The position numbers and the translations under genes were made by a program. Under the pieces are notes generated by a model, which was not told the origin of the DNA, made no database searches, and was given only the letters and a program-made list of their open reading frames with translations. DNA of 64,000 nucleotides from Clostridiales bacterium (lineage in GTDB: Bacteria > Bacillota > Clostridia > Oscillospirales > Oscillospiraceae), in contig JAJUGN010000004.1 in NCBI GenBank assembly GCA_029265975.1, positions 9,041 through 73,040 on the forward strand. The letters run 5' to 3'. Shown one piece after another: positions 11,236 to 58,648 of this stretch (positions are counted from its first letter, which is position 1; each line of letters starts with the position of its first letter).

Positions 11236-11428
11236 TGCTTCGTAAGGTTTGAGTTTTCTCGGACGAAAGATGAGCGACATCTCCCGCCCCGGTTCCGGCT
11301 CAGTATCCTGACTAATGCTTCGTCGCGCGGGCCGCCTTCCCGGTTTCATCCAGTGGCATAATGGCCGTAGCTCGGCAAATACAGTTGCGAGACAGCACGG
11401 GATTCTCACCCGTTTCCTGTAACCGAAT
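11236..11428 (-). promoter_or_regulatory. Cobalamin (B12) riboswitch aptamer
   Basis: Minus strand reads ...GGAAACGGGTGAGAATCCCGTGCTGTCTCGCAACTGTA... and B12-box-like GCCACTGG...CCGGGAAGGC. It lies upstream of cobalt uptake genes. Confidence 0.85.
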
Positions 11429-11433
11429 CCGCA

Positions 11434-11463
11434 AATTATAATGTTTTGCAAAACATTATAATT
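11434..11463. repeat. Perfect 30-bp palindrome carrying TATAAT on both strands (operator or divergent -10 candidate)
   Basis: AATTATAATGTTTTGCAAAACATTATAATT is its own reverse complement. It lies just upstream of the riboswitch 5' end. Confidence 0.5.
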
Positions 11464-28784: not shown

Positions 28785-29021
28785 ATGTTTGCTTTGCGTC
28801 TTGCCATTACCATAGTTCAGCTTATATGCGGAATAGCCATAATACTTGTGGTTCTGCTTCAGTCCGGCAAAAAAGCCGGCCTTTCCGGCGCCATAGCAGG
28901 CGGCGTTGATACATTTTTGTCCAAAAACAAATCCAGATCTGCGGACGCCCGCCTTGCGCGCATGACGAAATGGGTCGCGGCCGCTTTCATCGTACTGACT
29001 ATCGTGCTGAGCATTATCTGA
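28785..29021 (+). CDS. secG: Preprotein translocase subunit SecG
   Basis: About 78 aa with two TM segments and the LLQSGKKAGLSGAIAGG signature. TTGAAA-17-TATCAT promoter candidate at 28680-28708. Confidence 0.8.
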   Translation: MFALRLAITIVQLICGIAIILVVLLQSGKKAGLSGAIAGGVDTFLSKNKSRSADARLARMTKWVAAAFIVLTIVLSII

Positions 29022-29098
29022 GCTCTTTTGGATTGATTGTACGCGCCTTGCGCGCATCATTCGGTAAAACGGCTTGAAAATGAGGAGTTTCAAATAAA

Positions 29099-29339
29099 GA
29101 GGCGGGCGCTTTGCGCCCGCCTCAGCTTGTAGAAAAACTTGTTTACAGCAAAAAAGCTTCGCAGAATTTCCGCCACGAATGGCGGAAACAAAGTCAAATC
29201 TGTCGTTTCCGGAGGCGTGTACGTCGGAAATGACACCTCTCATGACGGGCGCGGCAGAGCGGCCGTCATTAAACCCCCTTGTCAAAAAAGCCCTTTTGTT
29301 TTTTTTGACAGTCTGAGGCGGGCGCTTTGCGCCCGCCTC
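29099..29339 (+). mobile_element. Hairpin-duplicating structured element, copy 1 (191-nt unit 29124-29314 plus 25-bp flanking direct repeats)
   Basis: GAGGCGGGCGCTTTGCGCCCGCCTC is present at 29099-29123 and 29315-29339. The internal unit is near-identical to 56490-56680 and 58428-58622. Confidence 0.7.
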
Positions 29340-29447
29340 GCGGTTTTATGGGAACAGAAAATCAAAAAGGCGAAAGGCGAAAAATTGTTTTCCGGAAGCG
29401 TTACAGAGGGAAAAATGCATATTGATTCGCGATGCGGGGCCGGACCG

Positions 29448-30443
29448 TCATATGAGCTCGCGTTTTTTCAGCCTGATGTCCCGGCCGCAGAAATTCAAAA
29501 CCACATATTCGCCCTTTAGCCTCGAGGCCACCTGAGGCGTGTAGCGCTTATCCAGCTCGTCCCATGAAAGGTTTGAGTTGATGATGGTCTTTTTGCCGTT
29601 TATAAGCCTTGTGTTAATAAGCGTGTAAAGGGCGCTCGAAACCATGCTGGTGAGCATTTCCGTCCCCAGATCGTCGACTATCAGAAGGTCGCAGTTCAAA
29701 AGGCGGTGGACCTTTTCACGGGTTTCCGAGGCGTCCGAGCCTCTTCCGAACTTTTCCTCCTCGAAGGCTGCGAAAATATTGACCGCTGTGTCGTATACGA
29801 CCGAAAAGCCCTTCTCGGAAACGACTTTGGCGATGCTTGTTGAAAGAAAGGTCTTGCCGAGCCCCGTGCCTCCGCTGAGGAAAAGGTTGGGGGAGTCCTT
29901 CCTGAACTCTCTGGCGTATTTTTTGCATTTTTCAAAGATCAGGGACATGGTCTCCCGGGGCGAAACGCCCGTCTGGTCCTTCACGTTGTCGTAATATTCA
30001 AGACAGAAGGTGTTGAAAGTCTCCTGACCGAGCTTCAGACAGGCCGAGAGCTCCTTGCGCTGCTCATCCCTGTAAATGTCCATAAGGCAGCCGCAGGGCT
30101 TTGCGCCCAGAAAGCCGCTGTCGCCGCATTTTTTGCAATTCGGCTCGTCGTCTATGTCCGACTCGCGGCAGCCCGCCGCCGCCAGTATCTCCGAACGCTC
30201 CGCCTGGAGCTTAAGGCTTCTTTTCCGGGCAAGGTCGATCTCCCTCTCCACGTCCAGGCTTCCCGAAACGGCGGTTCCGATCGCGTCCAGCATTATTGAG
30301 CGCAGCTCGGCGTCTATTTCCCGAACCCGCGGGTGTTTTTCGTAGACCATGGCCCTTAGCTTCGCCGCTTTCGCCGCGCGCGCCAGCTTTTCCTCGTTGA
30401 GCCGTTCGATTGCCTGCCTGAGCAGCTTGCCGTCCAAAGACAT
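29448..30443 (-). CDS. dnaI: DnaC/DnaI-type helicase loader ATPase
   Basis: N-terminal Zn motif CKKCGDSGF...CGC, Walker A GGTGLGKTF, Walker B LLIVDDLG. Confidence 0.8.
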   Translation of the reverse strand: MSLDGKLLRQAIERLNEEKLARAAKAAKLRAMVYEKHPRVREIDAELRSIMLDAIGTAVSGSLDVEREIDLARKRSLKLQAERSEILAAAGCRESDIDDEPNCKKCGDSGFLGAKPCGCLMDIYRDEQRKELSACLKLGQETFNTFCLEYYDNVKDQTGVSPRETMSLIFEKCKKYAREFRKDSPNLFLSGGTGLGKTFLSTSIAKVVSEKGFSVVYDTAVNIFAAFEEEKFGRGSDASETREKVHRLLNCDLLIVDDLGTEMLTSMVSSALYTLINTRLINGKKTIINSNLSWDELDKRYTPQVASRLKGEYVVLNFCGRDIRLKKRELI

Positions 30444-42671: not shown

Positions 42672-42762
42672 TATGCTTATATTTGGCAAACCTGCGGAAA
42701 CGCCGGGACGCAAAACTCTAGAGCCTAAGTCGCTTGCGATAAGGCAGTCAGTTGCATGTTCG
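42672..42762 (+). promoter_or_regulatory. c-di-GMP-I (GEMM-I) riboswitch-like aptamer 1
   Basis: GGCAAACCTGCGGAAACGCCGGGACGCAAAACTCTAGAGCC...AAGGCAGTCAGTTGCA matches the GGCAAA / GNRA hairpin / GACGCAAAGC core as recalled from the Vc2 aptamer. Confidence 0.7.
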
Positions 42763-43011: not shown

Positions 43012-43100
43012 AGCTTAAATAAAGGCAAAGCAGGCGAAAGCCTGTGACGCAAAGCTATCAGGGCCCTCGACCTTCGGTCAGGGCAGCCAGTTGCTGCTAT
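43012..43100 (+). promoter_or_regulatory. c-di-GMP-I (GEMM-I) riboswitch-like aptamer 2
   Basis: GGCAAAGCAGGCGAAAGCCTGTGACGCAAAGCTATCAGGGCC...GGTCAGGGCAGCCAGTTGCTGC. Confidence 0.8.
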
Positions 43101-43144: not shown

Positions 43145-43238
43145 AAGTAAAAAGGGCAAAGCAGGCGAAAGCCTGTGACGCAAAGCTATCAGGGCCCTCG
43201 GCCTCCGGTCAGGGCAGCCAGTTGCTGCTATCGTTTCT
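43145..43238 (+). promoter_or_regulatory. c-di-GMP-I (GEMM-I) riboswitch-like aptamer 3
   Basis: Near-identical copy of aptamer 2. The differences (GACCTTCGGTC vs GGCCTCCGGTC) keep the hairpin pairable. Confidence 0.8.
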
Positions 43239-46088: not shown

Positions 46089-46268
46089 GCAGGGCGGCAT
46101 GTGCCGCCCTGCATCAGCTTGTCGAAAAACTTGTTTACAGTAAAAAAGCTTCGCAGAATTTCCGCCACGAATGGCGGAAAAAAGTCAAATCTGTCATTTA
46201 CGGCGGCGTGTACGTCGGAAATGACAGCTCTTATGACGGGCGCGGCAGGGCGGCATGTGCCGCCCTGC
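46089..46268 (+). mobile_element. Hairpin-duplicating structured element, copy 2 (3'-truncated, ~132 nt) with 24-bp flanking direct repeats
   Basis: GCAGGGCGGCATGTGCCGCCCTGC is present at 46089-46112 and 46245-46268. The internal unit matches the first ~130 nt of the other copies. Confidence 0.6.
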
Positions 46269-56453: not shown

Positions 56454-56716
56454 TGGTATAATATCTGCAAAACAGATATTATACCATGCAGCTTGTCAAA
56501 GAACTTGTTTGCAGCAAAAAAGCTTCGCGGAATTTCCGCCACGAATGGCGGAAAAAAGTCAAATCTGTCATTTCCGGCGGCGTGTACGTCGGGAATGACA
56601 CCTCTCATGACGGGCGCGGAAGAGCGGCCGTCATTAAACCCCCTTGTCAAAAAAGCCCTTTGGGCTTTTTTGACAGTCTGTGGTATAATATCTGCAAAAC
56701 AGATATTATACCATGC
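56454..56716 (+). mobile_element. Hairpin-duplicating structured element, copy 3 (191-nt unit 56490-56680 plus 36-bp flanking direct repeats)
   Basis: TGGTATAATATCTGCAAAACAGATATTATACCATGC at 56454-56489 and 56681-56716. The unit has imperfect TIRs and four serial hairpins. Confidence 0.75.
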
Positions 56717-58401: not shown

Positions 58402-58648
58402 GGGGACCGCCTTTTTGGGCGGTCCCCGCAGCTTGTCAAAAAACTTGTTTACAGCAGAAAAGCTTCGCAGAATTTCCGCCGCGACCGGCGGAAACAAACA
58501 CAAATCTGTCATTTCCGGCGGCGTTTACGTCGGAAATGACACCTCTCATGACGGGCGCGGCATAGCGGCCGTAATGCAGCCCCCTTGTCAAAAAAGCCCT
58601 TTGGGCTTTTTTGACAGTCTTAGGGGACCGCCTTTTTGGGCGGTCCCC
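58402..58648 (+). mobile_element. Hairpin-duplicating structured element, copy 4 (195-nt unit 58428-58622 plus 26-bp flanking direct repeats)
   Basis: GGGGACCGCCTTTTTGGGCGGTCCCC at 58402-58427 and 58623-58648. The unit is colinear with copies 1 and 3. Confidence 0.75.

Follow-up and report, generated by a model that had tools for sequence, protein, structure and literature searches.

A probable miniature element with IS1182-type ends inserted between duplicated copies of a secG terminator hairpin in a Clostridiales genome

IS1272, a member of the IS1182 family, inserts into DNA secondary structures, mostly terminators, without primary-sequence preference and in both orientations (PMC4923244). 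Upon insertion, it is reported to remove part or all of the stem-loop without making a target duplication (PMC4923244, PMC5678879). A cruciform model proposed for these elements has two outcomes: the stem-loop is replaced if its 3' feet are attacked, and an attack on the 5' feet would yield two complete copies of it (PMC5678879). As quoted in PMC4923244 and PMC5678879, a 2015 review states that palindromes are targets of some IS1182 members. Neither MITEs derived from IS1182 nor duplications of whole hairpins are mentioned in a 2024 review on prokaryotic MITEs (PMC10969869). The MITEs Correia, BOX/RUP/SPRITE, bcr1 and QMITE are short, high-copy, intergenic and stem-loop-rich and have terminal inverted repeats, likewise the miniature element described here, and some of them carry terminator-like hairpins; unlike it, they make short duplications, for example TA (PMC10969869).

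Here we analyzed a 64,000-nt stretch of contig JAJUGN010000004.1 (the window), in which such an element lies between two copies of a terminator hairpin. IS1630 of Mycoplasma fermentans (IS30 family) is described as duplicating inverted repeats of variable length. The hairpin-duplicating outcome is the same as at our locus, but the transposase family differs, and the likeness is one of described outcome. Other close systems are the IS1182 insertion sequences (ISs) of E. faecium (NZ_LR134109.1) and of Sutcliffiella horikoshii (pBH-BAT-167), around which a whole palindrome is duplicated, as around the miniature element. These ISs are 1.5 to 1.6 kb long and encode their transposase, whereas the miniature element has 193 bp, is gene-free and contains an unrelated hairpin module. 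It has stem-loop/terminator targeting in common with IS1272 and TnSha1 (staphylococci, IS1182 family), but IS1272 is reported to delete part or all of the stem-loop, while the miniature element keeps the full stem-loop on both sides, which corresponds to pathway b of the cruciform model (PMC5678879). The element adds to the hairpin duplicators of the IS1182 kind; the mechanism itself is not new.

The window's own assembly (G000) has 1.97 Mb in 75 contigs and is 89% complete. It was compared with five congeners (G001, G002, G003, G004 and G005). A previous reading of the window, made from the letters only (the sequence-only reading), reported that the 25-mer GAGGCGGGCGCTTTGCGCCCGCCTC is present twice downstream of secG and that the two copies enclose a 191-nt unit. 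Both copies are exact, their start-to-start spacing is 216 nt, and the enclosed unit has the reported length (Table 1). In shuffles of the window, 0 matches to this 25-mer were expected by chance. The 25-mer is a hairpin, as proposed, but in inverted-repeat analysis its stem measured 11 bp and its loop 3 nt, rather than the proposed 10 bp and TTTG. On the plus strand, a T-tract follows only the right-hand copy (CGGTTTTATG), as stated in the sequence-only reading; on the minus strand, it is the left copy that has a T-rich tail (TTTATTTGAA). Since the plus-strand T-tract is found only at the right and the minus-strand tail only at the left, a single ancestral hairpin would have been a two-way terminator for the two convergent genes. 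Profile searches upheld the secG label (TIGR00810, 69 bits versus a cut-off of 30.85). The second gene, previously labeled dnaI, encodes a DnaC/DnaI-like AAA+ loader homolog (NF005304, 265 bits versus a cut-off of 215) and has a DnaD-domain gene as neighbor, but its match to the DnaI model is below cut-off. Elsewhere in the window, Rfam detected three c-di-GMP-I riboswitch aptamers close together (42675-42759, 43014-43098 and 43145-43229) and a cobalamin riboswitch on the minus strand (11280-11442).

Table 1. Features of the secG/helicase-loader intergenic region and its flanking genes (window coordinates)
Feature	Position	Strand	Basis or remark
secG, upstream convergent gene whose terminator was hit	28785..29021	+	TIGR00810, ORF
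A-rich tract TTCAAATAAA; minus-strand T-rich tail of left hairpin	29089..29098	-	Terminator scan: hairpin 29123-29099, then TTTATTTGAA
Left target-hairpin copy (TSD), 11-bp stem, 3-nt loop	29099..29123	.	Exact 25-mer repeat; single G005 hairpin at homologous site
Probable inserted miniature element, copy 1	29124..29314	+	~150 genomic copies; 4.1% from consensus
Left terminal inverted repeat, core mutated (TGTC to TGTA at 29131)	29124..29139	+	Consensus TCAGCTTGTCAAAAAAC
Conserved module: GCTTCGCAGAA, H1 29167-29188, linker AACAAAGTCAAATC, H2 29201-29235 (loop GCGTGTA), tail CCTCTC	29156..29241	+	
Stem-loop H2, private changes A-to-G 29205 (G.T wobble) and C-to-A 29213 (inner pair broken)	29201..29235	+	
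Stem-loop H3 (ATGACGGGCGC...GCGGCCGTCAT)	29242..29269	+	Fold; sequence varies among families yet pairs
Terminal hairpin H4, two-way-terminator-like in consensus, decayed in copy 1	29279..29311	.	Consensus; three substitutions
Right terminal inverted repeat TTTTTTTTGACAGTCT	29299..29314	+	Inverted-repeat pair; family consensus
Right target-hairpin copy	29315..29339	.	Exact repeat
Original downstream tail GCGGTTTTAT, plus-strand T-tract of the ancestral terminator	29340..29349	+	Terminator scan; G005 equivalent GCTTTTGTGA
DnaC/DnaI-like AAA+ helicase-loader homolog, downstream convergent gene	29448..30443	-	NF005304

An empty site was searched for by joining the two flanks and running them against the five congeners. 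The secG-loader spacer of G005, 129 nt long and with flanks 83-86% identical to those of G000, contains one hairpin at the homologous position and no element. It reads ...AAAATTGAGGAGTTTGAAATATA-GAGGCAGGCGC-CGAA-GCGCCTGCCTC-GCTTTTGTGA..., and the corresponding region of G000 reads ...GAAAATGAGGAGTTTCAAATAAA-(hairpin)-(element)-(hairpin)-GCGGTTTTATGG. The stems of the two hairpins show compensatory differences. This agrees with the core of the sequence-only reading, namely that an inserted unit duplicated the secG/dnaI terminator and that an orthologous spacer should contain a single hairpin; tandem hairpins without the unit, named there as the outcome that would speak against it, were present in 0 of the 5 congeners. 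In G002, G003 and G004, the same spacer contains one hairpin of different sequence. The orthologous terminator of G001 (L070, G001:C63:600-1750, reverse strand) is again a different hairpin (GGAAAAGCAGACG...CGTCTGCTTTTCC), and its two copies, which arose by a separate duplication, flank a 153-nt insert that belongs to a second high-copy family. We also noted that, in G005, only 23 nt separate the hairpin from the stop codon of the loader gene; the corresponding stretch of about 90 nt in G000 (window 29350-29447, downstream of the right-hand hairpin) has no counterpart there.

The unit is highly repeated in its own genome. A blastn search of G000 yielded 150 matches, 117 of which were at least 150 nt long and 88-96% identical. 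About 45 further partial matches are cut by contig ends, and about 45 contig ends lie inside a copy; thus, the approximately 150 repeat copies largely explain the fragmentation of the assembly. The partial matches were considered as a possible autonomous partner in G000, but they are contig-end truncations, and this candidate was rejected. The consensus ends in the terminal inverted repeats TCAGCTTGTCAAAAAA / TTTTTTGACAGTCTGA (TCAGMYTGTCRAAAAA; left TCAGCTTGTCAAAAAAC and right GCTTTTTTGACAGTCTGA). The consensus terminal hairpin A6-GCCC-TTT-GGGC-T6 is formed by the right repeat together with an inverted copy of it inside the element. The element is gene-free, crossed by short mechanical ORFs only, and about 193 bp long. 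Duplication and element are most often offset by 1 nt at either end; the element proper therefore probably runs from C-AGC to TCT-G (193 nt), which in copy 1 would place its ends at C29123 and G29315, shared with the duplication.

Further copies are present in the window at 56490-56679 (C13:65530-65719) and 58430-58620 (C13:67470-67660), together with a partial copy at 46116-46254 (C13:55156-55294; unit positions 1-140). The copy at 56490-56679 is flanked by copies of an AT-rich 36-bp palindrome; thus, GC-richness of the target is not required. The 3-nt loop of H4 (consensus 173-175, window 29294-29296) is TTT in 61 copies and AAA in 46. Its state is unlinked to all other polymorphic sites (all p > 0.19), which suggests recurrent inversion of the loop. 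Target duplications with one loop inverted were seen at C65:38507, C70:21696 and C51:15699. The right repeat and its internal inverted copy covary at consensus positions 163 and 185 (A-T in 77 copies, G-C in 19, discordant in 1); the A/G polymorphism at position 11 of the left repeat is unlinked to this covariation.

Target duplications were scored by a strict criterion in 74 full G000 copies whose flanks both measured 70 nt or more. An abutting direct duplication of 23-40 bp (median 29), 0-2 nt from the element, was found at 63 of them. Each of these 63 duplications is a different, locus-specific stem-loop of 8-17 bp; in about 75% of the duplications, each end lies 0-1 nt from the stem foot, and duplication length correlates with hairpin size (r = 0.89). 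Identical duplication pairs were found in 25 of the 63 cases, and the remainder differ at few positions. Among the exceptions were two copies with one loop inverted and one with a 12-bp AT-rich duplication. The data thus show that duplication and hairpin coincide, that larger hairpins go with longer duplications and, with G005, that an empty site exists. At three copies with mismatched flanks (C64:18047, C27:51456 and C49:19134), the partner hairpin was found beside copies at the ends of C26, C12, C68, C31 and C24, suggesting either that copies recombined or that the assembly was wrongly joined across the 190-bp repeat. Convergent gene pairs surround 36 of 69 scorable copies. The orientation of the element is unbiased, both between tandem genes (10 versus 11) and relative to the T-tract side (17 versus 19). 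The unbiased orientation and the convergent context fit a symmetric structural target at terminators.

Similar elements with other internal hairpins are present in the same genus. The second family accounts for 162 candidates in G001, 23 matches in G004 and 2 in G000 (C51:26073-26160 and C36:16997-17085), and its full copies have IS1182-type ends and whole-hairpin duplications. Together with the occurrence of the H1-H2 module in public elements (see below), this shows that the miniature elements of these genomes form a related set whose hairpin cargo is modular. H3 has a different sequence in G003 and G015, and a hairpin is still formed.

To assign the element to a family, we screened 41 relatives with the IS1182 transposase profile NF033551. 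Intact genes were detected in G001 (same genus), G015, G011, G007 and G031, and a pseudogene in G005. The nearest annotated relatives of the G001 transposase (46-49% identity) are all labeled 'IS1182 family transposase'. Neither the profile nor tblastn detected an IS1182-type transposase in the G000 assembly, which is 89% complete and breaks at repeats, and a lenient scan of G000 for isolated element ends gave chance matches only. In the relatives, the NF033551 genes are bounded by TCAGCCTGTCGAAGAAC, TCAGTTTGTCGAAAAAG and TCAGCCTGTCAAAAAAG, and hairpins abut these ends. The IS ends are TCAGCCTGTCAAAAAAG in G001, TCAGTTTGTCGAAAAAG...TTTTTCGACAGACTGA in G031, CAGCCTGTCGAAGAAC in G015, CAGCCTGTCGAAAAAG in Thermocaproicibacter and TCAGCTTGTAGACAAAG in Sutcliffiella. 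The ends of the miniature element match the termini of these transposase-encoding elements. Diverged copies of one hairpin adjoin both ends of the G031 IS, and diverged hairpin copies are seen at L042; at L041, an IS copy in G015, the ends are rearranged or nested, and no clean duplication could be defined.

Two finished plasmids with annotated IS1182 genes carry full-length examples. In the E. faecium plasmid NZ_LR134109.1, the element TCAGACTGTAGAC...GTCTACAATCTGA is located between exact 20-bp hairpin copies, the whole reading ATAGAGCTTTTCAGCTCTAT / TCAGACTGTAGACAAA...TTTGTCTACAATCTGA / ATAGAGCTTTTCAGCTCTAT. In Sutcliffiella pBH-BAT-167, TCAGCTTGTAGAC...GTCTACGGTCTGA is located between exact 28-bp hairpin copies, with AAGCACTTGTCTAAAAAGACAGGTGCTT on both sides of TCAGCTTGTAGACAAAG...TTTGTCTACGGTCTGA. 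These copies establish whole-hairpin duplication, together with a TCAG..TGT terminus, as an IS1182-type trait. Both features recur in the miniature element, which thus appears to be a non-autonomous IS1182-type derivative. We therefore consider it very likely that the 191-nt unit is a decayed MITE of about 193 bp with IS1182-type ends that was directed to a hairpin by a transposase acting in trans.

Against this assignment, the co-occurrence of element and transposase is loose across the 41 relatives: elements without a transposase were found in G003 and G030, and a transposase without elements in G007 and G031. Co-occurrence was too loose to be used as evidence and was discarded. The missing IS1182-type gene in G000 also counts against the assignment, although weakly in so incomplete an assembly, as does IS1272, the best-studied member of the family, for which no duplication is reported. 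When full-length IS loci were searched (the L042 and L045 transposase proteins were used, and L041 and L043 were left out), the H1-H2 module was not found in the loci examined. The miniature element has about 16 terminal bases in common with the full-length ISs, plus the layout of a repeat with an overlapping hairpin; with the module missing from these ISs, it is not a simple internal-deletion derivative. At the IS ends of L229, L227 and L045, the stem of a subterminal hairpin overlaps the inner terminal repeat, as in H4 of the miniature element; thus, the ends of these ISs are shaped like a stem-loop foot, as the target is.

Copy 1 itself has decayed. Eight of its positions deviate from the consensus: those at 29132 and 29271 are common polymorphisms, and the other six (29131, 29205, 29213, 29297, 29299 and 29300) are private or near-private. 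At 29131, in the core of the left repeat, the change from C to A is unique among 126 copies. The degraded 3' hairpin noticed in the sequence-only reading (GCCCTTTTGTTTTTTTT instead of GCCCTTTGGGCTTTTTT, which is the family consensus) is accounted for by the near-private substitutions at 29297, 29299 and 29300. These fall in the 3' arm of H4, and a terminator scan called no terminator at H4 in copy 1. The overall divergence of copy 1 (4.1%) is typical when compared with the family median of 4.5%. Because the core of its left repeat is mutated, copy 1 is probably immobile.

The internal module is built as GCCTCGCAGAG - H1 - AAATAAAGTCAAATC - H2 (loop GCGTGTA) and was found in six genomes of the order (G000, G001, G003, G011, G015 and G030). 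It is also present in many public Oscillospiraceae/Clostridiales gut genomes, including those of the cultured Faecousia intestinalis and Pseudoflavonifractor gallinarum; matches in other phyla are scattered, have odd spans and are about as numerous as estimated by chance. The public module loci are elements of 182-309 bp with IS1182-type ends, and 9 of 15 have abutting hairpin duplications. The module is much older than the burst in G000. In G030, which belongs to another family of the order (L035, L093-L111), at least 20 module copies are found in longer multi-hairpin units, in which GCCTCGCAGAG is sometimes repeated about every 95 nt and H2 also occurs inverted. G030 gave no IS1182-type transposase match, and most of its units are without recognizable terminal repeats.

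These properties raise the question of whether H1 and H2, and perhaps H3, constitute a functional plus-strand RNA or single-stranded DNA (ssDNA) domain, for which the element is chiefly a vehicle. This would add to the transposon reading; the domain may be, for instance, a module of a small RNA or 3'-UTR whose end is set by the element's own terminator, or a transposition cofactor. Consistent with such a role, GCCTCGCAGAG, AAATAAAGTCAAATC and the GCGTGTA loop are near-invariant across genera, and the stems covary. H1 was judged by folding each sequence, because variable arm lengths make a MAFFT alignment unreliable; its stems CCGCC, GCGCC, GCCGC and GCGTC differ in sequence, and all fold. In an alignment of 35 sequences, H2 was 92.8% paired as compared to 37-55% with slid partners, and both sides were changed in 6 of 14 pairs. 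Among 64 unique H2 sequences from many genomes, pairs switched between CG and GC (48:15), TA and CG (43:17), and GC and AT (32:26), and wobbles were in excess on the plus strand (12 G.U versus 2 A.C, with one pair being G.T in 57 sequences, A-T in 7 and A.C in 0), with the limits that these sequences are related and not independent events and that the filter scored G.T as paired. The pattern at H2 fits a plus-strand single-stranded fold, either RNA or DNA. In the plus orientation, the module is followed by the terminator-like hairpin.

At the gathering threshold, Rfam 15 contains no family that matches the module or any other part of the element, and at E values up to 10, only far-sub-threshold matches to terminator hairpins were obtained. 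Several observations speak against the functional-domain proposal. No promoter-like site was found inside the element, and the unbiased orientation relative to neighboring genes argues against a need for read-through transcription. Recent stem mismatches in G000 lack a strand bias: the non-fixed mismatches comprise 39 A.C and 33 G.T. The G-U pair in the second stem, from which the folded strand had been deduced in the sequence-only reading, is indeed present in the plus strand (G.T at 29205; A-T in 138 of 142 copies), but it is private to copy 1 and thus provides no evidence for the folded strand. Furthermore, the transposase family acts on stem-loops of DNA, so that selection for hairpins at the DNA level explains the pattern as well as an RNA role does. 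Taken together, we regard it as possible but rather unlikely that the element is chiefly a vehicle for such a domain. The corresponding wider claim, that H1-H2 is a functional plus-strand structured RNA/ssDNA domain outside Rfam which was spread by IS1182-type miniature elements through gut Oscillospiraceae, is equally tentative, and we would sooner doubt it than accept it. If it is true, the module would be planted downstream of genes at terminators and could act on mRNA 3' ends or in hairpin-directed transposition.

A different hairpin-duplicating transposase, for example one of the IS30 family as in IS1630, could also have moved the element, and the IS1630 outcome is indeed the same. This is very improbable, since IS30-family transposase genes (NF033563) were detected in 0 of 6 genomes of the genus, and the terminal repeats match those of IS1182-type elements, which likewise duplicate whole hairpins. 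IS200/IS605-type and group IIC elements use hairpins or insert beside terminators, and the element is itself hairpin-rich, so that it might be a palindrome-associated IS200/IS605 derivative or a group IIC intron remnant. However, the element has two features that these classes lack, clear terminal inverted repeats and a duplicated target, its orientation relative to terminators is unbiased, and no intron or omega-RNA family of Rfam matches it; we consider such an origin extremely unlikely. Finally, two identical hairpins 216 nt apart might suggest that the terminator was duplicated locally, in tandem, with unrelated sequence as filler and no mobile element, but this is refuted by the single hairpin at the G005 empty site and by the recurrence of the 'filler' about 150 times between other, unrelated hairpin pairs.

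The IS1182-type reading suggests the following course of events. An IS1182-type DDE transposase, the gene for which was not found in the G000 assembly, would have been supplied in trans and would have bound both terminal repeats. The target would have been a DNA stem-loop and not a sequence, here the two-way terminator of secG and the helicase-loader gene. The element would have been joined at the two feet of the palindrome, most simply with the cruciform extruded and the feet side by side, and, following the model in PMC5678879, the attack would have been at the 5' feet. The stagger between the joins would then correspond to the whole palindrome, and gap repair would leave a complete hairpin on each side. 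After insertion, the hairpin followed by a T-tract would be, for each of the two genes, the far copy. Transcripts from both sides are predicted to run first through the near hairpin, now separated from its T-tract, and then into the element. In intact copies, such transcripts would be stopped at the terminal hairpin of the element itself (A6-GCCC-loop-GGGC-T6). Because this hairpin is decayed in copy 1, read-through to the far hairpin would be expected here in both directions.

With the 63 duplications, the empty site and the matching full-length ISs on finished plasmids, structure-directed transposition is documented here by an unusually clean set of natural insertions. The target is a stem-loop irrespective of its sequence, and its duplication in full supports the 'duplicating' branch of the cruciform model for the IS1182 family. 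For genome annotation, this means that doubled terminators about 200 bp apart in these gut Oscillospiraceae are insertion scars. The roughly 150 copies account for the fragmented assembly and for some apparently exchanged flanks, and every insertion parts a gene from its T-tract.
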